Assembly (NCBI GenBank): GCA_036156175.1
Contig: JAYZVA010000090.1
Span: 1,609-65,608 of the forward strand
DNA length: 64,000 nucleotides
Origin: Myxococcota bacterium
GTDB lineage: Bacteria > Myxococcota_A > UBA796
Direction of reading: 5' to 3'
Position numbers and translations under genes: made by a program. Of this stretch, positions 2,084 to 63,984 are shown piece after piece (the stretch's first letter is position 1; each line of letters starts with the position of its first letter). Below the pieces are notes generated by a model. The model saw nothing but the letters and a program-made list of their open reading frames with translations. It made no database searches and was not told where the DNA came from.

Positions 2084-2701
2084 TCACCGGCCGGCCTGGG
2101 CGCCCCACAACTGTTGGAGCCGATGGTCGCGGCCGCATCCCGCGCGGTAGCTTTTGTACCGCGTCGGGTTCTTTTTGTAGAAGTCTTGGTGGTATTCCTC
2201 GGCGAGCCAGAACACTTGTTTGGGCAAGATTGGGGTCACCACCGTCCGCTTGAGGGTGCGCTCGGCCCGGGTCTTGCTGACGCCCGCCGCGGCACGCTCT
2301 TCCTCCGAGCCCACGAATACGGCCGTCCGGTACTGGTCTCCGCGGTCGCAGAACTGACCGTTTGCCTGCGTTGGGTCCACGTTGTGCCAGAAGGTGGAGA
2401 GCAGCTCTTCGTACGTGATGGTGGCCGGGTCGTACACCACTCGAATCGCTTCGAAATGTCCCGTCTCGCCGCCCGCAACTTGGCGGTAGGTCGGTCCCAC
2501 CTCCGGACCGCCGGTGTACCCCGACTCCACGGCGACCACCCCTGATCGCTTCTCGAACGGGGGCTCCATGCACCAGAAACACCCGCCGGCAAAGATCGCC
2601 TCGGCGAGGCCCGCCTTGGGGGCCTCGGCCGCCACCGTGGGCTCCGCCGCTTGCAGCGGTTCGCCGCAGCTCAACCACAGCACGAGCGCGGCCCCAATCA
2701 C
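2084..2701 (-). CDS. msrA: Peptide-methionine (S)-S-oxide reductase MsrA, with signal/lipobox
   Basis: GGCFWCMEPPFEK...GVVAVESGYTGG...YHQDFY motifs. A GTG start (rc 2699-2701) overlaps the msrB stop in a GTGA junction. The N-terminus reads VIGAALVLWLSCG. Confidence 0.9.
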   Translation of the reverse strand: MIGAALVLWLSCGEPLQAAEPTVAAEAPKAGLAEAIFAGGCFWCMEPPFEKRSGVVAVESGYTGGPEVGPTYRQVAGGETGHFEAIRVVYDPATITYEELLSTFWHNVDPTQANGQFCDRGDQYRTAVFVGSEEERAAAGVSKTRAERTLKRTVVTPILPKQVFWLAEEYHQDFYKKNPTRYKSYRAGCGRDHRLQQLWGAQAGR

Positions 2702-3180
2702 GGTTTGGCCTCTTTGGGCTGAAAGTCGAGAGCGTTGCCGTTGATGCAGAACCGTTGCCCGGTGGGGGGCGGCCCATCGGGGAACACATGCCCCAGGTGG
2801 CCGCCGCAGCGGTTGCATAAAATTTCCGTCCGGCTCATCCACAGCGAGTTGTCTTCGGCATCGGCCAGCGCGTTTTTCTCAATGGGCCGGGTGAAGCTGG
2901 GCCACCCCGTGCCCGACCGGAACTTGTCGTCGCTGGAGAACAGCGCGAGGCCGCAGCCGCCACAGGAATAGATTCCAGGGGCCTTGTTGTCCCAGTACTT
3001 TCCGGTGAACGCACGCTCCGTGCCTTTTTTGCGGAGGATGCGGTATTGCTCGGCTGTGAGGCTGCTGCGCCACTCGGCATCGGTCTTGGTCACCGCATCT
3101 GCGCGCGGCGACACAAAGCCGTCGGCGGCCTCCGAAGGGCCGCACCCCAGTGCCAGTGCCAAGCTGACCAGCCGTTTCAT
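2698..3180 (-). CDS. msrB: Peptide-methionine (R)-S-oxide reductase MsrB, predicted lipoprotein
   Basis: SCGGCGLALF...GTGWPSFTRPI...CNRCGGHLGHVFPDGP...RFCINGNAL. The likely start MKRLVSLALALGC (lipobox) has GGAGG 7 nt upstream. Confidence 0.9.
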   Translation of the reverse strand: MKRLVSLALALGCGPSEAADGFVSPRADAVTKTDAEWRSSLTAEQYRILRKKGTERAFTGKYWDNKAPGIYSCGGCGLALFSSDDKFRSGTGWPSFTRPIEKNALADAEDNSLWMSRTEILCNRCGGHLGHVFPDGPPPTGQRFCINGNALDFQPKEAKP

Positions 3181-21000: not shown

Positions 21001-22401
21001 TCAGTCTCCCGGCGGGTCGTCGCACACAAAGCCCTCGACCTCGAGTGCGTCGATGAGGTGCCAGTTGGTGCTTCCACCGGTCGCCGCGGTGAACCCCACG
21101 TAGGCGTCAAAGGGGACGAGTCCGTCGATCATCTCGTCGAGATACAGCACCTCATCCACCCAGAATTTCAGGTGCGGACCGGTGACTTCGAGCTTCGCCA
21201 CGTGCCACGCGCCGTCTTCCATTTCGGGGAGCGTTGCCCAGGCAACGGGCGCGTTCACGTCGCCGTCGATGTGGACGCTGACGTGGTCGAGCGCCGTCGG
21301 ATCCCAGTGCTCGCCGTTATACCAGGTGTCGACCTCGATCGACCACCCTGGAAGCCCGTAGTACCCGATGCCGCCCCCAGTGCCGCCAACAAACGACGTC
21401 ATTCGCGAGACATCGAGCATGGTGAGCGAGATGCCATCGGCGCCAGTGCCGCCCGAAACATAAAACTCCCACTCGATCTCGAGGAGATCCGAAATCACCG
21501 TCGACATGGTCTGAAAGGCGGTCCCCGCTTGGGTGGTGACCGGCGCCGTCAGCTCGACCCACTCGTTCACCGAATCCCACATGGCCGACCCCTCGAAGTG
21601 CCACGCCGCCAGGTCGATGCTGTCCTCGGTGTATCCCTCGTTCTGGCATATGGTTGTGCACGTGGACGCGGTCTGGCCGCAGGAATCGGTCACATCGACG
21701 CAGATCGTGTGGTCGCCACTCGACCGCGCTTCGCTGTTCCAAGCCAGCGAAGCGATGCCATCCGGCGCCGCGGGCAGCGACGCGACTTCACCGTCCACAT
21801 CGGAACTCCACGTCACGACAAGGTCGTTGGCCGCGTCGCGATCGTCGCTCACCGCGGCCTCGAAGACGGCAAACGCACCGGGCGAAATCACGTCACCGAC
21901 TCCGGGAGAAATCAGACTCACACTCGGCGGTGCGTCTTGCTCGACCCGAAGCGGAACCGTGCGCGCGGGGACGTCCGGGTCGTTGCTGTGAATCACCATC
22001 GTCCCCGTTCCACCCGACGACCGGGCGGTGATCAACAGCGATTCCTCCGCTGCGAGGGTGACCGGCAGCGGCCGGTGAGAAAGCGTCCACCCTTCGCCCT
22101 CGACGGCGAGGGACTCCACGACCAAGTCGCCCAACCCGATGTTGGTCACGGTGATCGTTTCTTCGTACAGCCCGCACTGGATCTCCCCGTCGACGCCGTC
22201 CGGAGTGACCATGGAGATCGGAAACTCGGGTTCCGTCGGCGGGTCATCGGGTTCACTCGGGGGCGGTGCAGCCGTGTCGACCGTGAGTTCATCGGCAGGG
22301 TTTGCGGGCTTGAAGTCGTGCACCATGTTGTACTCGGTGCACCCCAGGGCCAGTGCCGCCGCACCCGCGAGAACTCCCATGCCTGCTGCCCGACCACCCA
22401 T
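21001..22401 (-). CDS. Lipoprotein with Ig-like domains and a C-terminal L-type (legume/ConA-like) lectin domain
   Basis: Start MGGRAAGMGVLAGAAALALGC (lipobox). C-terminal sequence: GADGISLTM...GGTGGGIGYYGLPGWSIEVDTWYNGEHWDP...HVSVHIDG...GFTAATGGSTNWHLI, matching the ADG / GGxLGY / xExDT / H(V/I)xI pattern of L-type lectins. Confidence 0.65.
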   Translation of the reverse strand: MGGRAAGMGVLAGAAALALGCTEYNMVHDFKPANPADELTVDTAAPPPSEPDDPPTEPEFPISMVTPDGVDGEIQCGLYEETITVTNIGLGDLVVESLAVEGEGWTLSHRPLPVTLAAEESLLITARSSGGTGTMVIHSNDPDVPARTVPLRVEQDAPPSVSLISPGVGDVISPGAFAVFEAAVSDDRDAANDLVVTWSSDVDGEVASLPAAPDGIASLAWNSEARSSGDHTICVDVTDSCGQTASTCTTICQNEGYTEDSIDLAAWHFEGSAMWDSVNEWVELTAPVTTQAGTAFQTMSTVISDLLEIEWEFYVSGGTGADGISLTMLDVSRMTSFVGGTGGGIGYYGLPGWSIEVDTWYNGEHWDPTALDHVSVHIDGDVNAPVAWATLPEMEDGAWHVAKLEVTGPHLKFWVDEVLYLDEMIDGLVPFDAYVGFTAATGGSTNWHLIDALEVEGFVCDDPPGD

Positions 22402-22440
22402 GGCTTTAGAATGCACCCCGATGGGCCGCCTGGCAAGGAC

Positions 22441-22456
22441 CCACCGGTGGTATAAT
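22441..22456 (+). promoter_or_regulatory. Extended -10 promoter (TGgTATAAT) positioned for a leaderless transcript of the candidate selenoprotein gene
   Basis: TATAAT lies at 22451-22456, preceded by TGG (22448-22450) and the palindrome CCACCGGTGG (22441-22450). The ATG at 22464 lies 7 nt after the hexamer, and there is no Shine-Dalgarno sequence. Confidence 0.5.
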
Positions 22457-22463
22457 CGCAACG

Positions 22464-24335
22464 ATGGCTCTTCGACTGGTGGGATTCACGCTGCTGTTTG
22501 GGTGCACGGCTGCGCCCGAACAACCGTGCATGGATGGGTACTCACGGGGGGCCGATGGTCGGTGCATCAGCGAACCCGATGACGTCGCAAGCGAGACCCC
22601 GTCCGATCCGGCATCATCGGACACCGGCGAACCCATCAGCCTGGTGCGCGTGGAGTGCGCTCCAGACTCTCCCACCAACGAACCCAGCATTGAAATGATC
22701 GGGAAATACGACACCGACGACAACACCGAGCCGCCCGGATTGCTGATCGAGGCCCTCGACGGTGTGGTGGACCAAGAACGCTTCTGGGTCGTGGGCCAAG
22801 GCGGACTCTTGAGCTTCGACATCAGCGGCGATGTCCCGGAACTTGGCGACGTCTTCGGCGGCATGAGCGGGCGCTTCTACCGGCTGATGCTGGTTGATCA
22901 CGACCCGCCACTGGTCTACGCCACCCACCGGGATTCAGGCCTTCAAATCGTGGACCGCTCCGACCCATCCGACCTCCGGCTTGTGAAGACGGTGACGAAA
23001 GACGGCCTGGGCGGAATGGTTCAGGTCGGCGACCGGGTCTACGCCACGCAGCATGACGGAACGCTTGTGGTTTTTGACGCCACCGATCCGACCGCACCCG
23101 AGGAGCGTGCATCGATCGAGGCGCCGGGCCACCCGTGGAATGTCGTGGAAACCAACGGCTGGCTGTACACTGCAGACAACACCCGCGGGGTGGGCGCATT
23201 CAGCCTCTCCGACCCCGACGAGCCCGAGTTTGTCGGCCACACCGATCTGGGCAACGGCGTCCTGGACCTGGCGACGGACGGCACCCGGCTGTTCGCCGCG
23301 GCGGGTTCAGCCGGCCTGATCGTCCTCGACCTCAGCGACCCGTCTTCCCCCCGAGAGAGTGCCCGACTGTGGACGGGCTCGCCTGTGGTTGATGTCAGCG
23401 TATCGGACGCCATGGTCTGGCTGGTGGACCATGAAGCCGTGTGGGCCGTGGATGTTCGCCAGCCCGACCAGCCAACCGTGATTGGGCGCATGGAGACGCC
23501 CCGATTCGCGATGTCGGTCTGGGCCGAAGGAGACGAAGCATGGGTGGGTGACTGGACCGCAGTCGAAGGGTACCGAGCGCACCCCGAGCGCGCAGCCAGC
23601 ACGATTGTCGCTCACCCCGACACCCTGCGTCTGGCCTCCGACCGCCATGACGCCACCGTGCGGCTGGTCAATCTGGGGCCCCACGACGGCGCTCTTCTCC
23701 GCTGGGATGCCAACGAGACGGACGCCACCATCGGCGTGTCCTCGACCACGGTCGGCGCGCAGGACGGCGTGACGATCGCTGTGGACTGGCCCGAATCCAC
23801 TGGCAACGGGCAGGTCTGCCTCTTGACCAGCGACCCTTCCAACCCCACCGTCTCCATCAATGTGCAGCGTTCCGACCAACGGCTCAGTGTGCCGGTGGGG
23901 ACCGCAGCACCGGACTTTGAGCTGCCCACGCTCGATGGCGAGCGCCTGCGGCTCAGCGAGCAACTTGGGCATCCCGTGCTGCTCGTCTACTTCGCAACCT
24001 GGTGACCCGTGTGTCCGTCCGAGGTCTCGGACATCAGCGAACACATGTGGCGCGACTACCGCGACGATGGGCTGCGGGTGTGGGGCATCTCATCCACCGA
24101 CCGCGAAGCCGACCTCCGCCGATTTCGAGACCAACTCGGCGTTGACTTCCCCATTCTCTTCGATGCGGCCGGGGATGTGCACGCGCAGTGGCTGCAGGAA
24201 CTGGCGTTTCACTCTGCGGCCTACCCACAGGACTGGCTGATCGACCCCGAAGGACGCGTGGCGTACGCCAACAATCGCTACGAACCCGATGAGATCCGCG
24301 CGTTGCTTGACCAATGGTTTGACCGCGAGCCCTGA
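22464..24335 (+). CDS. Candidate selenoprotein. Domain order: lipobox, LVIVD-repeat beta-propeller, Ig-like domain, C-terminal TlpA/redoxin-like thioredoxin-fold domain with a U-P-V-C motif. The TGA at 24003-24005 is read as Sec.
   Basis: ORFs 22464-24005 and 24009-24335 are in the same frame and are separated only by the TGA. Read-through gives ...APDFELPTLDGERLRLSEQLGHPVLLVYFATW-[TGA]-PVCPSEVSDISEHMWRDYRDDGLRVWGISSTD..FPILFDAAGDV...DPEGRVAY, the canonical redoxin F-W-A-x-W-C-x-x-C block. A SECIS-like hairpin follows. LVIVD-type repeats are present (LQIVDRSDPSDL, LVVFDATDPTAP, GAFSLSDPDEP, LIVLDLSDPSSP). Confidence 0.7.
24009..24046 (+). promoter_or_regulatory. Candidate bacterial SECIS stem-loop directly downstream of the in-frame TGA
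   Basis: Upper stem GTCCGA (24017-24022) pairs with TCGGAC (24027-24032), with loop GGTC (24023-24026). A possible lower stem GTGTGT (24009-24014) pairs with ACACAT (24041-24046). The apex GAGGUCUC resembles the E. coli fdhF SECIS apex (GCAGGUCUGC, from memory). It sits 21-24 nt from the U of UGA. Confidence 0.55.
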
Positions 24336-24907: not shown

Positions 24908-25525
24908 TCAATATTGGACGGGCTCCGCATCCAAGTGACGCCACAAGTACCACGTACCCACCGTCCGGTACGGCGCCCATGGCGCCGCAATGGCCGCCAC
25001 TTCTTCAACCGTCAGCGCCGCCCGTTCGGCGTACAGCTGCTCGACGGCGCGGATGACACCGATGTCGCCCAGCGGCAACACATCGGGTCGAAGCAAGGTG
25101 AAGATCAACACCATCTCGGCGGTCCATGGGCCGATTCCGCGGAGGCTGGTCAGCCGCGTTCGAACCGCATCATCGTCCATCGAATCCCAGTCGGTCGTGG
25201 TCACCCACTGCCCGTTGGTGGCAAGTCCAAGGATGTATTCCACCTTTCGACCCGACAATCCCACTGCCTTCAACGCCTCGGGAGAGTGCGCAACGACATT
25301 CGCCGGGGTCACGGGACCCACCAGTGCCACCAAGCGACCCCAAACGGCATCGGCCGCTTTGGCCGAGATCTGCTGCCCGACAACCGCGTGAACGAGGGTC
25401 TCGAACACGTCGCGCTTCGAGCGCAACGGCGGCTCTTCGTAGGTGTCGATGACGGCGGCCATGACCGGGTCAACGGCGCGAAGATGGGCCTTGGCGTCGC
25501 TCCAATACGGCGGTGCGGAGTTCAT
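24908..25525 (-). CDS. DNA-3-methyladenine glycosylase II (AlkA-like, HhH-GPD superfamily)
   Basis: DVFETLVHAVVGQQISAKAADAVWGRL...LSGRKVEYILGLA...LTSLRGIGPWTAEMVLIF...D (HhH-GPD with catalytic Asp context). Confidence 0.8.
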   Translation of the reverse strand: MNSAPPYWSDAKAHLRAVDPVMAAVIDTYEEPPLRSKRDVFETLVHAVVGQQISAKAADAVWGRLVALVGPVTPANVVAHSPEALKAVGLSGRKVEYILGLATNGQWVTTTDWDSMDDDAVRTRLTSLRGIGPWTAEMVLIFTLLRPDVLPLGDIGVIRAVEQLYAERAALTVEEVAAIAAPWAPYRTVGTWYLWRHLDAEPVQY

Positions 25526-25543
25526 GGGCCCCCTTTAACGGAG

Positions 25544-25558
25544 TCGGCGGTATACAAT
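25544..25558 (+). promoter_or_regulatory. Candidate promoter -10 region (TCGGCGG-TATACAAT) upstream of the M66-like protease gene
   Basis: TACAAT at 25553-25558 is preceded by TCGGCGG (25544-25550). GGAGG at 25568-25572 lies upstream of the ATG at 25577. Confidence 0.4.
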
Positions 25559-25576
25559 CCAGCCACTGGAGGCGCG

Positions 25577-28390
25577 ATGCGTGCGATGCTCATGGCAGGA
25601 CTGGCGGTTGCGGGGTGTTCGGACGCAGCCAAGACCATCGCGGACGCCATCGCTTCTGGCGGTGACACGGCAGCTGGAGCGGATGCAAGCCTTCCAGACA
25701 CGGCGGTCGATCCCGATGACGCGGACCCGTATTCGGCGTGCGTGGATGACCTGATTCCCCCCATGGAGTGGTTCGACGACCGACTCACGCAAACCGTGTC
25801 GGGCTCGATCGAGTTCGGGCAGACGCACGTGAGCCGTCCGGACGACGACCGCTGGGCACCGCCACTCATCGAGCACCGCGCGGCACTGCTGTTGTTTTCC
25901 CCGGACGAAGCCCTGAACGATGCGTCGGATGGCCGGCTCGCCGCGTGGCGGGGCAGCGAACTCATCGGCGTGATGCGCCTCGCCCCGCCCGCACAACTCC
26001 CAACCCCGCTGGAACAGGACCTCACTGAGGTTGCGCTCGAGCCCTGGTCGACAACGGCATGGAGCGCCGCGCTTCCGTGGCAGTGGGTCGAGGAGGGCAC
26101 GCGGCTGACCATCGGCATCGATGCGGGCGACGCGGTGCTCACCGCGGAGCACACACTCACGGACCTCGGTGCTCCGCAGCGGTTCACGCTCTCCCGCTCA
26201 AAAATGGTGCTGTTCGGGGAGGCGGATCACCCGACCACAACCGAGACCGCCGAGCGAATCGGGCGTGATTTCTTTGCAGCGGTTCCCGTTTCCTCCATGC
26301 GGTGGGTCGACTCGGCTCCGTGGCGGCTCGATGAGATCGTGGTCCGGGCCGACGGCGGGCCGGTGGTCGTGGCATCCGAGGGGGAGCGGCTCAGCCAAAC
26401 CTCAGACCCCGATCGCTGGCACATCCTGAAGCATCAGTTCGCGATTGCGATGAGCCTCGCGAACACCGGGCGCGGACTGGCAAAGACCACCGGAGGCGAC
26501 AGCTCGCCGTACGCCTTCGGAACCTCCGTTGGCTCGGGTTGGGTCCGCAATGATGACGGAACCTATTCGGACCTCGACAACGCACCGTACGCCGCCGGCT
26601 GGACGGGCTGGACCGCAATGTGGCTCGGCGAGTGCGCCAATGTCTTCATCCACGAGATTGGGCATTCCTTTACGCTCGCGCACTTCACAGCCGGGACCGG
26701 CAGCGCGTGGGGAATTGGCGACGAGTACCCGCTGGACGGTGTCAACTTGGAGGCCCACCCGTGGGGCTTTGACTCGACCCGACAGCGCTTCCGCACGTGG
26801 TACCGGGTCAATGCCGACGGACCGGTGGTCGCAGAGTCCGGCGGCTGGCAGGGAAAGAGGGACCCGATGAATGGCGGGGAGTCTCCAAACTCGGCCTCGT
26901 GCTTTCCCCAGTACACGCCGTACCATGCCTGGAAGATCCAAGACTGGTCGGAGACGCGGCCAACAATTGCGCGCATCGATGGCGAACCGGGCGTGTACAC
27001 TTGGGATGCCGAGTCGCGGACCATGGTCAAGACCGAGCCGGTCGAAGACGGCTCCATGGCGCCGGTCGCGGTCGATGTTCCCGTGGTGACCGTGATTGGG
27101 ACAATTGCCCACCGACCCGAGTCAAGCCGCGTCTACCCGCCCATTCATTGGGCGAGCGGCAATTCGTTTGACTTTGCAGCACCCGGCGATGCGACCCTTC
27201 ATCCCCACTATGCGGGGTCGAACTACTTCGTGGAGATCGAATACGCCGACGGGTCGAGCGAGCAACGCCTGATTGCGCAGCCAACGGTCCCCGCCACCGA
27301 CACGGACTTGTATCTCTGGAGCGTCAACCTGGAATCAGGGCGGAGTCCCGAGCGCGTCTCGCTGTTCCAGACCGTGGATCCCCATCCTGGCATGGACGTG
27401 GCCACGGCGTCGCTGCTTCACAGCGCACGCATCGACCCGCCAGACGAACCCGTCCCCGCGCCCGTCTTGATCGGAAACGGCTTTGTCGCGAACGGTGCCG
27501 TCTCGCTCACCGAGTGGTGCGAACCCGACATCAACTGTGCCCAGCGGGCGCGGTCAACGGAGTGGGCCACTGGGGCGACCCCGCTGCGCTTCACCGAGCG
27601 GGCGGATGCGCCCGACCCGGCCATTGCGTGCAGCGAAGACGGCTCGGTGACGGAACTGGTGGTGCCCATCCAAGACCAGAGTGGGGAACGCGCGTCGCTT
27701 GTGGTCCATGCGCAGCGAACCGTCCAAACCGCCACCCACCAATGGGCCGGTCCCATCAACGACGACACACCCTGGATCGACGCGGACAACGTTCGCCAAG
27801 GGCTCCGGGCCTGGGTGCCCCACGCACCCAATGCCGATCTGCCCGTCGGCACGTGGTCGAACGCCGACCCGTACACGCTCACTGCCCTGTCCGAGGGTTC
27901 CGCATTCGCCACGGTGCCCTTGGTCATCAACCTCACCATCTTGCCCACTGACGCGGTCGATGTGGGCGGCGGGTACGAAGGCCCGTCCGTCACCACGGAG
28001 GGCAGCTCCACGTTCTTCACGGTCGATGACCCCGCCATGGGACCAACCGAGGGCGTCTGGTGGGGCAGTTCGGCCGCAACGCCGCTGACCATTCCCGTTC
28101 GGAACACCGCGACCGGCGCCACCACGCAGCTTCGGCTCGATGGGTGGAAACGCAGCTGCGACCTCGGGTGGGGCACGTGGTGGTCTCTGAACTCCGCCCA
28201 GGTCGCCGATGGATCCTGTGAGCAGCGGCCTCAGCTCGCGGTCTCGTCGAGCGGAAATGAGCACCTTGAGTCGGGCGAAACCTACGCCAGCCCGCCATCG
28301 GGACCATTGATTCTCCGGGCCCACGCCTGGCATTTGGGCAAACGCATCGTCGATACTCGCGCGATTGAGGTCACCTACACCGTTCCCTGA
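25577..28390 (+). CDS. Large lipoprotein with an M66 (StcE/TagA)-like zinc metalloprotease domain
   Basis: Start MRAMLMAGLAVAGC (lipobox). FIHEIGHSFTLAHF is an HExxHxxxxxH motif, as in M66 HEVGHNYGLGH. About 450 C-terminal residues have no family that I recognise. Confidence 0.65.
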   Translation: MRAMLMAGLAVAGCSDAAKTIADAIASGGDTAAGADASLPDTAVDPDDADPYSACVDDLIPPMEWFDDRLTQTVSGSIEFGQTHVSRPDDDRWAPPLIEHRAALLLFSPDEALNDASDGRLAAWRGSELIGVMRLAPPAQLPTPLEQDLTEVALEPWSTTAWSAALPWQWVEEGTRLTIGIDAGDAVLTAEHTLTDLGAPQRFTLSRSKMVLFGEADHPTTTETAERIGRDFFAAVPVSSMRWVDSAPWRLDEIVVRADGGPVVVASEGERLSQTSDPDRWHILKHQFAIAMSLANTGRGLAKTTGGDSSPYAFGTSVGSGWVRNDDGTYSDLDNAPYAAGWTGWTAMWLGECANVFIHEIGHSFTLAHFTAGTGSAWGIGDEYPLDGVNLEAHPWGFDSTRQRFRTWYRVNADGPVVAESGGWQGKRDPMNGGESPNSASCFPQYTPYHAWKIQDWSETRPTIARIDGEPGVYTWDAESRTMVKTEPVEDGSMAPVAVDVPVVTVIGTIAHRPESSRVYPPIHWASGNSFDFAAPGDATLHPHYAGSNYFVEIEYADGSSEQRLIAQPTVPATDTDLYLWSVNLESGRSPERVSLFQTVDPHPGMDVATASLLHSARIDPPDEPVPAPVLIGNGFVANGAVSLTEWCEPDINCAQRARSTEWATGATPLRFTERADAPDPAIACSEDGSVTELVVPIQDQSGERASLVVHAQRTVQTATHQWAGPINDDTPWIDADNVRQGLRAWVPHAPNADLPVGTWSNADPYTLTALSEGSAFATVPLVINLTILPTDAVDVGGGYEGPSVTTEGSSTFFTVDDPAMGPTEGVWWGSSAATPLTIPVRNTATGATTQLRLDGWKRSCDLGWGTWWSLNSAQVADGSCEQRPQLAVSSSGNEHLESGETYASPPSGPLILRAHAWHLGKRIVDTRAIEVTYTVP

Positions 28391-28440
28391 GCACCCCATC
28401 GGTGTAGACGCGGACCCGCTCGTCATCTACCCTGTTGTCG

Positions 28441-29679
28441 ATGATCAATCGCCGCGAGTTCGGACTGCTTTCAATGGGGGCCCTGTGCCCGCTTCGCGCG
28501 GTCGCCGATGGCACCGCGGCAGAACGCAAATTCGTGTTCATCTTCAACGATGGAGGCTGGGACACCAGTCACGTCTTCACGCCACTCTTTGGGGTCAGTG
28601 GCGCCTACATCGAAGAAGGCGCCACCCGCCGCACAGCGAACGGCATCGAGTACATCGACCACCCTGCCCGACCGGCCGTTCGAGAGTTCTTCGAGCGTCA
28701 CGGTCAACAAGCGGCCGTCATCAATGGAATTGAGGTTCCATCGATTACGCATGAGCGGTGCCGAGAGCTCATCTTGACCGGATCCGGCGCGCTCGCGGAT
28801 GACTGGGGAGCGATCCTTGCGGGGCGCTCCGAGCGGAACCTTTTGCTCCCTCATGTGGTCCTGGATGGGCCGGCGTTCACCCAGACCTTTACGGATCGGG
28901 TGGTCCGAATCGGGGACGCGAACCAACTGCCCAGCTTGCTGGACAACACCGCATTCTCGCTGTCCGCGCTGCCGATCACCGAACTCGGGATCGACGCGGA
29001 GGCGATGGCCGATGCATTCGTGGCGGAACGGGCATCCCGTCACGGCGGCGCGTTCGGCACCGATTACCGAAACGCGCTGGACCGCATTGCCGAGCTCATG
29101 GCGTGGGACGACCTCCAGCTTGACAGCATGATCGCGGGTTGCGAGCGCGACATTGCGGCGGATTGCGCCCTGGCCTTTGACCTGTTCGAGGCCAACCTCA
29201 CCCGCTGCGCCATGCTTCGGTACAAAGGATGGTGCTCCGAAGGGTGGGACACCCACCAAGGCCTTGACCTGCAAGGGCGCAACTTTGGCGACCTGTTCGC
29301 GTACCTCAACGAGGCAATGGATGACCTCAATGGTCGGACCGCAGCATCCGGGAACCCCTTGGCCGATGAAGTCACCATCGTCGTGTTCAGCGAAATGGGG
29401 CGGGAGCCGACCCTGAACACGTGGGGCGGTCGGGACCATTGGACCTTCACAAGCGCCATGATGATCGGGTCGGGCGTCCGGGGGGGCACCGTCGTGGGCT
29501 CGCTGGATGAATCCGGCCGGGGGCGGCGGGTTGACCTCGACACAGGAGCGGCAACGGACGGCGGACGCCTCATGGGGCCCGATGACTTCGGCGCCACGCT
29601 GCTCGCCCTCGGCGGCGTGGACCCCGCCCCCTTCGTCGGCACCGAGCCCGAGCCGATTCGAGCGGTGCTCCAATCGTGA
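28441..29679 (+). CDS. DUF1501-family protein (sulfatase-like fold) with twin-arginine signal
   Basis: MINRREFGLLSMGALCPLRAVA (RR motif); FIFNDGGWD...SEMGREPTLN..GRDHW. A TACCCT box lies 7 nt upstream of the ATG. Confidence 0.75.
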   Translation: MINRREFGLLSMGALCPLRAVADGTAAERKFVFIFNDGGWDTSHVFTPLFGVSGAYIEEGATRRTANGIEYIDHPARPAVREFFERHGQQAAVINGIEVPSITHERCRELILTGSGALADDWGAILAGRSERNLLLPHVVLDGPAFTQTFTDRVVRIGDANQLPSLLDNTAFSLSALPITELGIDAEAMADAFVAERASRHGGAFGTDYRNALDRIAELMAWDDLQLDSMIAGCERDIAADCALAFDLFEANLTRCAMLRYKGWCSEGWDTHQGLDLQGRNFGDLFAYLNEAMDDLNGRTAASGNPLADEVTIVVFSEMGREPTLNTWGGRDHWTFTSAMMIGSGVRGGTVVGSLDESGRGRRVDLDTGAATDGGRLMGPDDFGATLLALGGVDPAPFVGTEPEPIRAVLQS

Positions 29680-30026: not shown

Positions 30027-30853
30027 TTCTGTGGCTGCTCGCCTGCGCGGGAACGCCAACCGTCACCGAACGCGCCTCCCCCCACGCCCAACCCGGAACG
30101 GCACCCAGCACCGATACCGGTGAACCCGGGTTGCCCGCGGTCGCCGTGGAAGAACTGGAGCCCTCATGGAGCCCCGAGGACGTCGGCGAACGCCTGGCCA
30201 CGGCGCTGGGCCAGATGCCGGATCCCACCGAAGCGGTCAACACCTATGCCAACTTGATGCGTCAAGGCGATGCGGTCTGCCCGGGTTCGGAACGGGTGAT
30301 CGTCGACACCTGGCTGTATGGGTGTGATGCATCCACCGGGTACAGCTTCGCGGGGGTCACCGACTGGCTCACCGGTGAATACGATGTCGCCGGGCAGCCG
30401 ATGGAGATGGAAGGCGTCGCCGGTGATTTCTGGATCGACACCCCAGAGGGACACCGACTGGAGGGCGGCGGAAACGCGGTGGTGCTCACCGATGGTTCGA
30501 CCTGGATCGGCGATCTCACGGGAAGCTGGCGATACTCCGGCGGCAGCGACTGGTTCGCGTACGGCTTCAGCGGCACCGTGTCGATCCAGCACCTGCCGGG
30601 ATTGTTCACCCTCGCGGAAGGGGCAGCCGATGTGCTCGGGACCCACATGGCACTGCACGAACTGATGCTCCCCGATGCCTGCAACGGCGGAGCCCAAGGC
30701 GATCTTTCCCTGCGCGACCCCAATGGCGGGTGGTACCGAATTGCCTTTGAAGGCTGCACGGAGTGCGGGCCCATCACCTTCGAGGGCACCCCAATCGGCG
30801 AGGCATGCGTCGACTTTGGGCCCTTCTTGGCGCGCATCGGGAGCTGGCCATGA
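30023..30853 (+). CDS. Hypothetical lipoprotein
   Basis: The GTG start overlaps the upstream stop (GTGA at 30023-30026). VILWLLACAGTP lipobox. I recognised no family. Confidence 0.55.
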   Translation: MILWLLACAGTPTVTERASPHAQPGTAPSTDTGEPGLPAVAVEELEPSWSPEDVGERLATALGQMPDPTEAVNTYANLMRQGDAVCPGSERVIVDTWLYGCDASTGYSFAGVTDWLTGEYDVAGQPMEMEGVAGDFWIDTPEGHRLEGGGNAVVLTDGSTWIGDLTGSWRYSGGSDWFAYGFSGTVSIQHLPGLFTLAEGAADVLGTHMALHELMLPDACNGGAQGDLSLRDPNGGWYRIAFEGCTECGPITFEGTPIGEACVDFGPFLARIGSWP

Positions 30854-32454
30854 TTGTCGCGCTCTGGCTCGCCTGCACCTCGGCGGACCCCGAACCATCG
30901 GCCGGTCACCGGGGCACCGCCGACGCCATCGAAGACACCGCGTCGGGCTCGCTTCCCCGGGCTCGATTGGACGATGCCGCATGGTTGCGACGCGTCAGCT
31001 TCGATCTCCGGGGCGTGCCGCCAACCACCGCCGAACTGGACGAGTTGAACGACGACCCTTCGCTTGCCCCCAACCTTCGGGACGCGATGATGCACAGCGC
31101 GCGCTTCGAGTCGCGAATGGTGAACGCGCTGGCGGAGCGGTGGCACACCCGAGTCGACGAGTTCGACATCGTCGCCTTCGACTACGGCTTGCCTTCGAGT
31201 GCGGAATACGAATTCGAGCGGGCGGTGGGCGAGGAACCCCTGCGGCTCTTGGCCCGCATCATCGCCACCGATCGGCCCTGGACCGACGCGGTGCTGGCGG
31301 ACTGGACGATGGCCACCCCGTTGCTTGGCGAGATTTGGCCCATCGACTACCCCAGCGGCGAGTCCGGGTGGCAGCCCGCTCGGTACACCGACGGCAGGCC
31401 TTCAGCCGGCGTGCTCTCCACCAACGGGCTGTGGTGGCGGTACACGACGACCGACTCGAACATGAACCGCGGACGCGCTGCAGCCATCTCGCGACTTCTG
31501 CTGTGCGAAGACTACCTGATCCGCCCGGTGGCGTTTTCGGAAGCCGACACATCGGGCACCACCACCGCCGATGCGGCCCAGGAAGATCCGTACTGTCTGG
31601 CCTGCCACTCCAGCCTCGACCCCATCGCGGCATCCCTGTTTGGGTTTTGGTGGATGTCGCTGTATTCGCGGATTGAGGAGACGACCTACCACCCCGAACG
31701 CGAGGCGCTCTGGGAACAATACCTGGGCGTCAGCCCTGGCTGGTACGGGGAACCGATCAGCGGACTGAGTCAACTGGGCCCGTCCATCGCGAATGACAGC
31801 CGCTTCTTTTCGTGCGCGGTGGAATCGATGGCCGAGTTCGTCTGGCGTCGCCCGGTCACCGCAGACGATTCCGATGCCATCGAGTCGCTGCGACGCGGGT
31901 TCTTGGAGGGCGGTGCCGTCGTGCGTCCACTGATTGGCGCGCTGACGGAGGCCGACGCGTACCACGATGCCGAGCCGCGCATGATGACCCACGACCAGTT
32001 TGCTGACACCGTCGAGGCGCTCACTGGGTTCCGGTGGACGCACGAGGGGTACGACATGCTCGACACCGACCGATTGGGGCACCGGCTCCTGCTGGGAGGC
32101 GTGGATGGCATTGCCAATCGCGCACCGCAAGATCGACCGGGGCTCACCTGGGCACTGGTGGTCAAGCGGACGGCGGAGGCCGCCGCATCGCATGCGGTCG
32201 AGCGGGAGCTGGTCGACGGCGGCGAGCGGCGTCTCTTTCGGTTCGTGACCTTGGACACCGTGCCCGATGACGACGACTTCGAACGCGAACTTCGCGGATT
32301 TCACCGGGGCTTCTACAGCCGGGATGCGCCCGATGAATGGGTCGACGAGATGCGCGAGCTCTGGTCGGCGTTGGCGGCCATCGGCACGCCAACCGAAGCG
32401 TGGCAGGCGACCGTGTCCGTGATGATTCGGGACCCGGCATTTTTGACGCACTGA
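30850..32454 (+). CDS. DUF1549/DUF1553-like protein (the usual partner family of DUF1501), lipoprotein
   Basis: The ATG overlaps the upstream stop (ATGA). MIVALWLACTS lipobox. WLRRVSFDLRGVPPTTAELDEL is a DUF1549-like block, and DPYCLACHSSLDPIAASLFGFW is a C..CH..DP block. Confidence 0.6.
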   Translation: MIVALWLACTSADPEPSAGHRGTADAIEDTASGSLPRARLDDAAWLRRVSFDLRGVPPTTAELDELNDDPSLAPNLRDAMMHSARFESRMVNALAERWHTRVDEFDIVAFDYGLPSSAEYEFERAVGEEPLRLLARIIATDRPWTDAVLADWTMATPLLGEIWPIDYPSGESGWQPARYTDGRPSAGVLSTNGLWWRYTTTDSNMNRGRAAAISRLLLCEDYLIRPVAFSEADTSGTTTADAAQEDPYCLACHSSLDPIAASLFGFWWMSLYSRIEETTYHPEREALWEQYLGVSPGWYGEPISGLSQLGPSIANDSRFFSCAVESMAEFVWRRPVTADDSDAIESLRRGFLEGGAVVRPLIGALTEADAYHDAEPRMMTHDQFADTVEALTGFRWTHEGYDMLDTDRLGHRLLLGGVDGIANRAPQDRPGLTWALVVKRTAEAAASHAVERELVDGGERRLFRFVTLDTVPDDDDFERELRGFHRGFYSRDAPDEWVDEMRELWSALAAIGTPTEAWQATVSVMIRDPAFLTH

Positions 32455-62559: not shown

Positions 62560-63984
62560 ATGATGAGGCATGCGATTTGGGTCGTGGCAGCGGCCATGGG
62601 GTGCGTCGAGGCGCAGTACGCAACCACCGAGCCGCCGGAGACCTCCGGTGTGGCAGACACCGGGAGCGCGCCCGCCACGCCGGTGGATGGCCAGGTGGCC
62701 TTCCAGGGCACCTACAACGCGCCGGATGCCCTTTTGTTCGAATGGACCATGGACGACGGCGAAACGGCCGAACTCCGCGTCAGCGGACCCGATGGCTTTG
62801 AGGCCATGGTGCCCGGACTGAGCGGCTCGACCCACACCCTTCAAGCGCTGGCCGACGGCGAGTACCACGCAACGGTGACGGTGCGCCACGCCGACGGCAG
62901 CCAATCCGCCGCGTCGCTCACCCAGCTGGTCGGCACCAACCGCTTGGTCTACCGCTCCGAGGTGCCGCTCGACCGCGCGATGGATGTGTGGGGGACCGGG
63001 GACGTGGCCGTGGTTGGTGGCGGAACCAACAGCCGAACCAGCGCGTTGGTGGTGGACATCTCCACCGCAACCCAACCCGACGGGCTCCACACGATGACCG
63101 GAATCGGGTTCGTGAGGGACGTGAAGGTCTTCGATGATCTGCTCTTCACCGCGGTGGACCCAAACTCCGACGGGTGCGAGCTCTGCGATGACATCGGCGT
63201 ACGAATCTACGAGTTCAGCAACCCGGCCGAACCGAAGCTGCTGTCCACCATCGGCTCGCCCGCCTGGGCGGTGCACAACATGACCTACAGCAACGGTCAC
63301 CTGTACCTGGCCAGCATGGCCGAGGGGTCCGTGGCCGTCTTTGACGTGCGCGACCCGGCCGAACCGACCCGCGTGGCCACGTGGTACTCGCAAGAGGCCC
63401 CCGGCTTTGCCCACGGCCCGGGCGGCTCCACCCACGACATGACCGCCCAAGGCGACCGGTTGTATGTGGCCCACGTGACCGGCTTCAGCATCGTCGACAT
63501 CGCCGATCCCACCAATCCAACGACCTTGTCCGATACCCGGGTCAACATGGGCATGCACAACGTGTGGCCCAACGCGGATGGCACGCGGCTGGTGGGCACC
63601 CAAGAGATCTTCGGGGGTGCGCTGTCCCTGTGGGACATCTCGGACCCCGAGAACATCGCGTTGTTGGACAGCCGCTCAAACGGCGACGACCGCTGCGTGC
63701 ACAACGCGTACTTCGACGGCGACACCGTGTTCGCCGCCTGGTACATCGACGGCGTGTACAGCTTCACCGTCGATGACGACACGCTGGTGGAGACGGGACA
63801 CTACGACACCTACGACGGCGCCCCGCCGGCACCGCCCGACGGCGCACCGCCACCCGGACCGCCCATCGAGGGCGCGTGGGGTCTCTGGACGTACGGCGAC
63901 CACGTTGTGGTCGGCGACACCGAGCGGGGAATGGTCGTCGTGGACCACTTCCCGCGCGTCATCAAGCAGTCGTCCTACCGGTAA
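62560..63984 (+). CDS. LVIVD-repeat / choice-of-anchor-B-like beta-propeller lipoprotein
   Basis: Lipobox AAAMGC. Repeats: HNMTYSNGHLYLA...VAVFDVRDPAEP, HDMTAQGDRLYVA...FSIVDIADPTNP, LSLWDISDPENI, HNAYFDGDTVFAAWY. Confidence 0.75.
   Translation: MMRHAIWVVAAAMGCVEAQYATTEPPETSGVADTGSAPATPVDGQVAFQGTYNAPDALLFEWTMDDGETAELRVSGPDGFEAMVPGLSGSTHTLQALADGEYHATVTVRHADGSQSAASLTQLVGTNRLVYRSEVPLDRAMDVWGTGDVAVVGGGTNSRTSALVVDISTATQPDGLHTMTGIGFVRDVKVFDDLLFTAVDPNSDGCELCDDIGVRIYEFSNPAEPKLLSTIGSPAWAVHNMTYSNGHLYLASMAEGSVAVFDVRDPAEPTRVATWYSQEAPGFAHGPGGSTHDMTAQGDRLYVAHVTGFSIVDIADPTNPTTLSDTRVNMGMHNVWPNADGTRLVGTQEIFGGALSLWDISDPENIALLDSRSNGDDRCVHNAYFDGDTVFAAWYIDGVYSFTVDDDTLVETGHYDTYDGAPPAPPDGAPPPGPPIEGAWGLWTYGDHVVVGDTERGMVVVDHFPRVIKQSSYR

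Follow-up and report, generated by a model that had tools for sequence, protein, structure and literature searches.

A putative selenocysteine insertion element in the coding region of a predicted LVIVD beta-propeller lipoprotein from Myxococcota

We analyzed a 64,000-nucleotide stretch of DNA from a Myxococcota bacterium, hereafter the window, in which a 16-nt hairpin at positions 24017-24032 lies 11 nt downstream of an in-frame UGA codon. Comparison of this locus with its relatives indicates that the hairpin is very probably a bacterial SECIS element, situated in the coding region of a predicted extracytoplasmic lipoprotein in which a TlpA/ResA-like thiol:disulfide oxidoreductase domain is attached to an LVIVD beta-propeller. 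A sequence-only reading of this locus had proposed selenocysteine (Sec) recoding rather than a nonsense mutation. That proposal is borne out by a UGA present at every one of 157 family sites, a Pfam domain that runs across the UGA, an open frame beyond it, frozen synonymous sites and compensatory changes in the stem.

Gene and predicted protein architecture

When translated in a single frame through its one internal TGA, the gene at 22464-24335 yields a 623-aa product with a lipoprotein signal, an LVIVD beta-propeller region, a linker and a C-terminal AhpC/TSA domain. Its features are as follows.

22464..24335, + strand: predicted selenoprotein gene, complete, read through the internal UGA
22464..22505, + strand: predicted lipoprotein signal peptide, MALRLVGFTLLFGC, ending in the lipobox LFGC (Cys14)
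23292..23366, + strand: best-scoring LVIVD repeat, aa 277-301 (PF08309, 45.8 bits against a cutoff of 20.2)
23895..24266, + strand: AhpC/TSA thioredoxin-fold domain, aa 478-601 (PF00578, profile positions 1-123 of 124)
24003..24005, + strand: in-frame UGA, predicted Sec codon, position 1 of the UxxC motif (W-U-P-V-C)
24012..24014, + strand: TGT, resolving Cys of UxxC (Cys in 100% of 133 family sequences)
24333..24335, + strand: predicted true stop codon of the gene, TGA

Pfam searches with the 623-aa protein returned AhpC-TSA (1.1e-25), Redoxin (PF08534, 3.1e-16) and LVIVD (3.8e-12), and the LVIVD repeat region as a whole covers roughly aa 95-375. The PF00578 match spans the UGA, which would encode Sec at aa 514 in the context FATW-U-PVC and stands for the first Cys of a CxxC motif. 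The C-terminal domain has a TlpA/ResA-like thioredoxin fold; its best NCBIfam match was the ResA subfamily at 63 bits, under the cutoff of 170, and DsbE scored 27.9 against a cutoff of 123. At the other end of the protein, Cys14 is conserved in at least 90% of the family alignment and, judging from the motif, is predicted to be the lipobox cysteine. An exact-protein look-up found no identical record for the 513-aa product that ends at the UGA. A second LVIVD gene in the window, at 62560-63984, was considered as a paralog and rejected: it is a distant, repeat-level relative that ends in TAA and has no thioredoxin domain.

An invariant UGA within a conserved reading frame

Our family comprises 157 related sites in 153 loci, mostly from marine Myxococcota metagenome-assembled genomes (MAGs). 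TGA occupies the codon corresponding to UGA 24003 at all 157 sites, and is still identical where protein identity has fallen to ~30%. About 40 database proteins stop exactly at this point, with the C-terminal sequence ...YFATW. The tblastn matches in the 153 loci continue past the TGA to residues ~616-623. Beyond the TGA, nearly all members have another 104-112 codons before the next stop, and the amino-acid sequence of this stretch is conserved, with conserved residues varying in their synonymous codons; the glycine at +22, for example, is GGC in 71 sequences, GGG in 22, GGT in 15 and GGA in 13. No conserved start codon was found after the UGA, a GTG at codon +2 occurring in only 13 of 133 sequences. 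The UGA aligns with a Cys in TlpA homologs (WCPPC) and in P0014 (FFATWCPHC), a full-length Cys form of 642 aa.

We also considered reassignment of TGA to a sense codon. The family genes end in TGA (69), TAG (56) or TAA (9), and because so many terminate with TGA, this codon is an ordinary stop in the carrier organisms. Reassignment was rejected on the grounds that half of the family genes end in TGA and that more ORFs of the window end in TGA than in either other stop codon.

A hairpin at a fixed distance from the UGA

The elements of the proposed structure are listed below.

24017..24032, + strand: predicted SECIS core, a 6-bp stem GUCCGA/UCGGAC with tetraloop GGUC, 11 nt after the UGA
24023..24026, + strand: apical loop GGUC, nt 21-24 counted from the U of UGA, predicted SelB contact
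24009..24014, + strand: lower helix 5' arm GUGUGU, optional; in the minimum-free-energy (MFE) fold here, not conserved
24041..24046, + strand: lower helix 3' arm ACACAU, optional; in the MFE fold here, not conserved

The hairpin exists as originally described: the UGA and the five segments of stem, loop and outer helix lie exactly where the sequence-only reading had placed them, and the GGUC loop falls at nt 21-24 as that reading had counted. Both the 6-bp hairpin and the outer helix were present in the MFE structures of 24003-24060 and of 23970-24100. The 16-nt hairpin alone has a predicted energy of -7.6 kcal/mol and the 58-nt segment one of -17.4 kcal/mol. Set against dinucleotide shuffles, the single-sequence folds were no better than chance (z = -0.10 and +0.24). 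In this window of 65% GC, 148 of 1566 TGA triplets (9%) precede a hairpin that fits an ungapped version of the generic bacterial SECIS model, and five precede a GGUN tetraloop on a stem of 6 bp or more. That the hairpin exceeds chance is thus known from comparison with relatives only, and not from single-sequence folding.

Conservation and covariation of the hairpin

Across 134 distinct sequences, 98.9% of the stem cells are paired. In the window, as in 131 of 134 relatives, the stem consists of 6 perfect bp with no bulge. The loop is GGUC in 132 of 136 distinct sequences and GUUU, GUUG or GGUU in the others; its distance from the UGA, 17 nt (24006-24022), is invariant in the ungapped family alignment. 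Four of the six stem pairs are forced by the peptide S-E-V-S-D when its serines are encoded by UCN. Only third-codon positions are left free by the peptide. In the loop, both such positions are invariant: the third base of the Glu codon is G in 133 of 133 sequences (GAG) and that of the Val codon is C in 132 of 132 (GTC). Hairpin proline is CCG in 89 of 90 cases, and hairpin serine is UCN only. Outside the hairpin, these genes show 0.6-2.2 bits of synonymous entropy at conserved codons for the same four amino acids.

The two remaining stem pairs, 18-27 and 15-30 (numbered from the U of UGA), are exactly those made by third-codon positions and are not dictated by the peptide. The stem noted in the single sequence shows compensatory changes at both pairs in the relatives. 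Pair 18-27 is CG in 114 sequences, GC in 17 and UA in three, and is never unpaired. Pair 15-30 is GC in 122, CG in six and AU in three, with G-U and U-G intermediates also occurring. On a neighbor-joining tree these pairs changed at least three and at least eight times, respectively, giving at least 11 state changes in total, and at least nine independent changes at the two pairs preserved pairing. None of 500 shuffles reached the covariation score of the hairpin. Three distant members with the peptides QEFPE, LELSD and QEFPG (L071, L072 and L073) form different hairpins that place a G-U-containing apex at nt 20-24; L071 alone has a bulged A at nt 17. Collectively, these substitution patterns indicate that the hairpin is under RNA-level selection independent of the peptide.

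Part of the original proposal did not hold up. The helix formed by 24009-24014 and 24041-24046, put forward as an extension of the hairpin, belongs to this sequence only. Across the family it is 47.9% paired. Lower-stem pairing, at a mean of 6.9 pairs, barely exceeds the 6.0 obtained with shuffled flanks, and we rejected the helix as a conserved part of the element. The proposal had also raised the possibility that Cys-containing orthologs might carry the hairpin equally. In four TlpA-type Cys homologs no hairpin forms at the corresponding place (-0.2 kcal/mol or weaker at best). The sole within-family Cys ortholog (L154), with the peptide AEVSD, keeps a weakened 4-bp remnant with a GGUG loop, at -3.6 kcal/mol compared to -7.6 kcal/mol here.

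The peptide S-E-V-S-D occupies the place of the usual TlpA-type R/Q-x-E-x-P stretch. Since the hairpin lies in coding sequence, the putative SECIS has apparently also fixed this peptide.

Proposed decoding mechanism and Sec machinery

According to our model, a ribosome reaching UGA 24003 would meet a hairpin 11 nt downstream, whose GGUC tetraloop would be contacted by the SelB C-terminal domain. SelB would then bring its Sec-tRNA(Sec) into the A site, competing with RF2. The selenocysteine would serve as the nucleophile of the U-P-V-C redox center, and after 109 further codons translation would end at the real TGA stop. SelB binding, Sec incorporation, the presence of selA, selB, selC and selD elsewhere in the genome and a periplasmic or lipoprotein location are inferred in this scheme.

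A Pfam scan for SelA, SelB and SelD domains found none among the 40 ORFs of the window. ARAGORN found no tRNA gene of any kind in the window, and in the 832 kb of sequence from related loci its only hit was a single tRNA-Ala; neither contained a tRNA-Sec. Because sel genes need not be linked to the genes that they serve, we regard their absence from the window and related loci as uninformative rather than negative. Separately, a scan of the window for further selenoprotein genes (UGA plus hairpin, with open frames on both sides) gave nine candidates, eight of them in Arg-rich shadow frames, and these were discarded. When the remaining genes in those 832 kb were searched for SECIS elements of this type, four weak matches were returned, none plausible.

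Alternative explanations

One rival account is that the hairpin is a by-product of encoding P-S-E-V-S-D and has no RNA function, the UGA being decoded, or not, by other means. The peptide does set four of the six pairs and the loop G-U, given UCN serines, and the Cys ortholog with AEVSD still forms a 4-bp version. However, every synonymous position of the hairpin is frozen or covarying while comparable codons in other parts of these genes are free to vary, and its serines are never AGY, compared to 15-25% AGY at other conserved Ser sites. Moreover, compensatory third-position changes have arisen repeatedly, distant members retain a hairpin at this distance despite encoding very different peptides, and TlpA-type homologs do without the S-E-V-S-D peptide altogether. 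The synonymous-site data have largely refuted this account, to which we assign only a slim chance. A slightly smaller chance attaches to a hairpin that promotes decoding of the UGA as an amino acid other than selenocysteine, such as Trp, Cys or Arg inserted by near-cognate read-through. Sequence alone does not tell which amino acid is inserted, the Sec machinery was not found in the window or related loci, and the UGA is directly followed by C, a context that makes for a weak terminator in E. coli. Yet the site is that of the catalytic Cys of a CxxC motif, the classic site of Sec/Cys exchange; the apex and spacing match the SelB-binding element of fdhF; and the same domain family is listed among marine selenoproteins.

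Gene callers, for their part, treat the TGA as a genuine stop, annotating two genes, and the databases store the two halves apart (P0001-P0042, ending in YFATW, and P0076-P0089, of 86-108 aa). On such a reading the locus would be a pseudogene, or would encode a 513-aa LVIVD protein and, with its own initiation, a 108-aa thioredoxin-like fragment, for which the window offers a GTG at 24009. It is hard to reconcile with an identical stop codon at 157 sites that have diverged to ~30% protein identity and with the lack of any conserved start codon past the TGA. In addition, the thioredoxin-fold domain begins 36 residues before the TGA and would be split, with loss of its nucleophile, and a full-length Cys form exists. 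The conservation pattern refutes a genuine stop for practical purposes, and we rate it as exceedingly improbable. Just as improbable, in our estimation, is a role for the inverted repeat outside decoding, either as a DNA palindrome to which a dimeric protein binds or as an RNA signal for some other task such as pausing or processing. The element is self-complementary on both strands, and symmetric changes in a DNA palindrome would mimic covariation. Against such a role, every member has it at exactly the same nucleotide distance from the in-frame UGA, its asymmetric center GGUC is invariant, the G-U and U-G intermediates at pair 15-30 fit RNA and not DNA, and the distant members keep the structure and the loop G-U but not the half-site sequence.

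Implications

On the SECIS interpretation, the locus should be annotated as one 623-aa selenoprotein rather than as a 513-aa "hypothetical protein" and an orphan "peroxiredoxin" fragment, the form in which about 60 members are stored. If the gene is one selenoprotein, its carriers, mostly uncultured marine Myxococcota, must therefore decode Sec. For method, the family offers a clean natural case in which a coding-region SECIS can be separated from peptide constraint, as the free third-codon positions are the ones that are frozen or covarying. Biologically, the family points to thiol-disulfide chemistry outside the cytoplasm that depends on selenium and is tethered to a beta-propeller, with several paralogs per genome. 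What is known of Sec decoding is unchanged by the finding.

We suggest more tentatively, and with some doubt, that this is an undescribed architecture, expanded to several paralogs per genome in marine Myxococcota, whose bulge-less 16-nt SECIS has stayed nearly identical in nucleotide sequence while the proteins diverged to ~30% identity. Were this true, it would imply unusually stringent SelB-SECIS recognition in this lineage, with the SECIS having dictated the peptide SEVSD, and would provide a naturally minimal SECIS for selenoprotein engineering.

Comparison with known systems

The E. coli fdhF SECIS sequence cited in the sequence-only reading is correct: it is 100% identical in the fdhF of 5419 of 5426 E. 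coli genomes. Like the hairpin described here, it lies within coding sequence and has its stem base 11 nt after the UGA (nt 15). The likeness of the apex also held up, A-GGUC-U being identical in the two, including the closing A-U pair; in fdhF this GGUC loop carries G23 and U24. In its predicted fold the E. coli element places GGUC at nt 22-25 and bulges out a U at 17/18. Both hairpins start 11 nt after the UGA, and the 1-nt offset in loop position (nt 21-24 here) arises because the perfect 6-bp hairpin here has no bulged U17. In fdhF, the minimal 17-nt SelB-binding stem-loop comprises nt 15-31 after the U of UGA, and the bulged U17 is reported as a SelB contact (PMC8659212). The fdhF element further differs in having a lower helix (nt 4-14 with nt 32-41), whereas no lower helix is conserved in our family, and in its host, a molybdopterin formate dehydrogenase rather than a thioredoxin-fold oxidoreductase.

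The bacterial SECIS model of bSECISearch specifies a loop of 3-9 nt, an upper stem of 4-16 bp, a UGA-loop distance of 16-37 nt, an MFE of at most -7.5 and a G at loop position 1 or 2, as a rule with G or U after it (PMC13188914). The hairpin at 24017-24032 agrees with every structural element of this model (loop 4 nt, stem 6 bp, GG at loop positions 1-2, distance 17 nt), and at -7.6 kcal/mol the core hairpin passes the energy limit narrowly. It also follows an in-frame UGA within an AhpC/TSA domain, aligned with the Cys of homologs. We found no structural difference from the consensus, a permissive model that 148 of the 1566 window TGAs pass in its ungapped version. Rfam gave no match over the whole window at gathering thresholds and none at E<=10 over 23900-24150; no curated model covers the hairpin element.

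The kind of signal and the selenoprotein family are already catalogued in ocean metagenomes (GOS 2008). In the GOS Dataset S1, the block "#Prx-like 3" contains two reads with YFATWUPVCPSEVSD (...AYFATWUPVCPSEVSDIEHSLWQQYKDQG...), and the Sargasso contig AACY023808862 (L134) belongs to the family found here. The Prx-like 3 selenoproteins of the Sargasso Sea and GOS selenoproteomes (PMC1088965, PMC2398784) share the C-terminal domain, the UxxC motif and the marine setting, and the present protein has the features of the Prx-like UxxC group, an AhpC/TSA or Redoxin fold with predicted Sec first in W-U-P-V-C. However, the short GOS reads did not reveal the ~510-aa N-terminal part with its lipoprotein signal and LVIVD propeller. 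The sole Prx-like 3 fusion described is to an "Unknown_3" domain with three conserved Cys (PMC2398784), and the literature that we searched held no link between LVIVD and selenocysteine.

Finally, the Cys-containing TlpA/ResA/DsbE proteins share with our family the thioredoxin fold, a W-C/U-x-x-C site and a probable extracytoplasmic location. In contrast to them, the family has at most 41% identity, scores below the ResA cutoff, probably uses Sec in place of the first Cys, carries SEVSD instead of R/Q-x-E-x-P and is fused to a beta-propeller.

Conservation of the UGA in a gene family split by gene callers

The reading frame at 22464-24005 stays open past its UGA to a second TGA at 24333-24335, and the read-through product is a protein of 623 aa in which three parts can be recognised. 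The N-terminus, MALRLVGFTLLFGC, looks like a lipoprotein signal, and its Cys14 is at least 90% conserved in the family alignment. LVIVD beta-propeller repeats (PF08309) precede a thioredoxin-fold domain of the AhpC/TSA / Redoxin type at the C-terminus (PF00578, aa 478-601, E = 1.1e-25). The UGA is residue 514, within the AhpC/TSA domain, where it takes the first position in the redox motif (FATW-U-PVC). The nearest NCBIfam models for this domain are the ResA, DsbE and TlpA-type thiol:disulfide oxidoreductases, with scores under their cutoffs.

A protein search returned ~40 homologs of roughly 520 aa, every one stopping exactly at ...YFATW, and a sole full-length homolog, the 642-aa database protein P0014, with FFATWCPHCSAEVSD. 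A C-terminal query returned fragments of 86-108 aa that start just past the UGA, followed by TlpA-family Cys proteins of at most 41% identity. Gene callers split the gene everywhere, into ~40 N-terminal "hypothetical proteins" (database entries P0001-P0042) and C-terminal fragments (P0076-P0089), some of which are named "peroxiredoxin".

GTDB genomes and JGI metagenomes were scanned and yielded 153 loci, mostly from marine Myxococcota ("Deltaproteobacteria") MAGs, in which tblastn matches continue across the TGA to the protein end. The codon after YFATW is TGA at 157/157 family sites; a single TGT at the aligned codon came from an unrelated thioredoxin in one locus flank. The open frame past the TGA spans 104-112 codons in nearly all members (usually about 107); a member with 484 codons may be a further fusion and one with 72 a truncation. 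Family genes terminate in TGA (69), TAG (56) or TAA (9), indicating that TGA is an ordinary stop in the carriers and is recoded only at the selenocysteine (Sec) site.

Several MAGs contain 2-4 gene copies (CAYXGP01, loci L015, L018 and L020; CAYFPX01, L023, L050 and L053; JBCBLB01, L011, L044 and L066). Some paralogs are in tandem, about 1.8 kb apart, each with UGA and selenocysteine insertion (SECIS) hairpin; loci with two sites are L013 (101, 1921), L034 (2636, 4435), L053 (4306, 6174) and L096 (31, 1857). Many "binchicken" TPA carrier MAGs (L003, L006, L010, L015, L018, L020, L021 and others) are titled "uncultured Enterobacterales/Enterobacteriaceae". These names are probably wrong, since other carriers are labelled Myxococcota/Deltaproteobacteria and GC is high.

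The hairpin downstream of the UGA

The sequence-only reading had proposed that a SECIS hairpin follows the UGA and supports Sec recoding. Its coordinates were exact against the window sequence:

24003-24005, + strand, in-frame UGA
24017-24022, 5' arm GUCCGA
24023-24026, loop GGUC
24027-24032, 3' arm UCGGAC
24009-24014 and 24041-24046, possible outer helix GUGUGU / ACACAU

Hairpin and outer helix were both present in the MFE folds of 24003-24060, 23970-24100 and 24003-24047. Compared with dinucleotide-preserving shuffles, the single-sequence fold was unremarkable (z = -0.10, +0.24, -0.96). Moreover, an ungapped hairpin fitting a generic bacterial SECIS model follows 148 of the 1566 TGA triplets on both strands of this 65% GC window, and 5 of them precede a GGUN tetraloop on a stem of 6 bp or longer. 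Because the fold does not stand out in a single sequence, the hairpin's significance had to come from comparison with relatives.

Selection on the hairpin at the RNA level

The post-Sec peptide in the family is P-x-C-P/A-S-E-V-S-D and, given UCN serines, encoding it already settles 4 of the 6 base pairs in the stem as well as the G and U of the loop. The remaining freedom lies in the third bases at Pro/Ala(+4), Ser(+5), Glu(+6), Val(+7), Ser(+8) and Asp(+9), counted in codons after Sec, and in the choice of serine codon family. Codon counts across the family revealed that every free position is constrained: Pro is CCG in 89/90 cases, Glu GAG in 133/133, Val GTC in 132/132 and Asp GAC in 122/126, and AGY is absent at both serines. 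At other Pro, Val, Ser, Gly and Glu codons of these genes, which are just as well conserved, synonymous entropy is 0.6-2.2 bits.

Both stem pairs made of free third positions covary. With the U of UGA as nt 1, pair 18-27 is C-G in 114 sequences, G-C in 17 and U-A in 3, and is never unpaired; pair 15-30 is G-C in 122, C-G in 6, A-U in 3 and G-U/U-G in 2, with 1 mismatch. Mapped onto an NJ tree of the flanking protein sequence, pair 18-27 changed state at least 3 times and pair 15-30 at least 8 times, indicating repeated events rather than one inherited variant. Stem pairing is 98.9% over 134 distinct sequences, and RNAalifold also recovers the stem. By contrast, the outer helix, although part of the window's MFE fold, is not conserved (47.9% paired across the family; mean 6.9 lower-stem pairs versus 6.0 with shuffled flanks). 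Collectively, conservation of the UGA and selection on the hairpin in relatives bear out the proposal that it is a SECIS element.

Three distant Sec-containing members have other post-motif peptides, TlpA-like Q-E-F-P in L071 (L071:4201-4245) and L073 (L073:3841-3885) and L-E-L-S-D in L072 (L072:2621-2665). Their sequences are unlike the main family, yet the hairpin apex lies at nt 20-24 and the loop has G-U: L071 and L073 have a GUU triloop, L072 an AGUUG loop of 5 nt. In L071 an A also bulges out at nt 17, where E. coli fdhF (formate dehydrogenase) has its bulged U.

A hairpin arising purely from the encoded peptide would also be expected in Cys-containing orthologs. In four TlpA-type Cys homologs (52-68% GC) a stable hairpin was absent (best -0.2 kcal/mol or none), but a weak remnant persists in L154, the locus encoding P0014 and the only within-family Cys ortholog, which is full-length with a TGC codon (L154:1615-1659). 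Its hairpin codons are GCG GAG GTG TCC GAC, with Val GTG in place of GTC, and they leave a 4-bp hairpin with a GGUG loop (-3.6 versus -7.6 kcal/mol for the window hairpin). This single case looks like a fossil SECIS and would fit a recent switch from Sec to Cys.

Sec machinery and genomic neighbourhood

No selA, selB or selD domains were found among 40 window ORFs and no tRNA in the window, and 832 kb of related loci contained no tRNA-Sec; these results are uninformative because such genes need not adjoin selenoprotein genes. The surrounding genes appear to form a cluster that encodes secreted or envelope proteins:

21001-22461, - strand, L-type-lectin-domain protein, divergent orientation
24914-28390, + strand, 1158-aa M66 peptidase / TagA-like lipoprotein
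28435-29679, + strand, DUF1501 protein
30763-32454, + strand, PSCyt2/PSD2 (DUF1549/DUF1585) protein

None of these four is an obvious redox partner. A second LVIVD-repeat protein (474 aa, 62560-63984, + strand, TAA stop just inside the window end) is a distant relative at the repeat level only (28% over 156 aa) and lacks a thioredoxin domain. The methionine sulfoxide reductase A (PMSR) gene at 2084-2842 (- strand) has an uninterrupted ORF; selenoprotein forms of MsrA exist in some bacteria.

Comparison with known selenoproteins and SECIS elements

UxxC "Prx-like" selenoproteins have been known from the Sargasso Sea since 2005 (PMC1088965) and were split into subgroups by GOS analysis in 2008 (PMC2398784). 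Two reads listed there under "Prx-like 3" (Dataset S1) contain ...GHPVVLAYFATWUPVCPSEVSDIEHSLWQQYKDQG..., and their peptide is that of L134, a Sargasso contig. Hence, these domains were already on record as Sec-recoded. NCBIfam and the literature that was searched made no mention of the lipoprotein and LVIVD propeller region at the N-terminus, of the Myxococcota link or of the multi-copy expansion, and the architecture joining an LVIVD lipoprotein to the selenoprotein domain is modestly novel.

Rfam had no match to the hairpin or the window. The bacterial SECIS consensus has a 3-9-nt loop with G in its first two positions, a 4-16-bp stem, 16-37 nt from UGA to loop and an MFE of -7.5 kcal/mol or lower (PMC13188914); the window hairpin agrees, with a 4-nt loop, GG, 6 bp, 17 nt and -7.6 kcal/mol. 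On this sequence evidence, the hairpin is very probably a functional, bulge-less SECIS with an fdhF-like apex that would direct Sec insertion at the UxxC centre of a domain resembling TlpA. The fdhF sequence that the sequence-only reading had given was correct, being unchanged in 5419/5426 E. coli genomes, and folds with GGUC at nt 22-25, an A-U closing pair and a bulged U at 17/18. The one-nucleotide loop offset that it had noted is real and arises wholly because the bulged U is missing from the window hairpin. The minimal fdhF element spans nt 15-31, beginning 11 nt past the UGA, with U17, G23 and U24 critical (PMC8659212); the window element spans nt 15-30 with the same 11-nt start. Thus, apex and spacing resemble those of E. 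coli fdhF, whereas the bulge, a defining fdhF feature, is missing from the window element.
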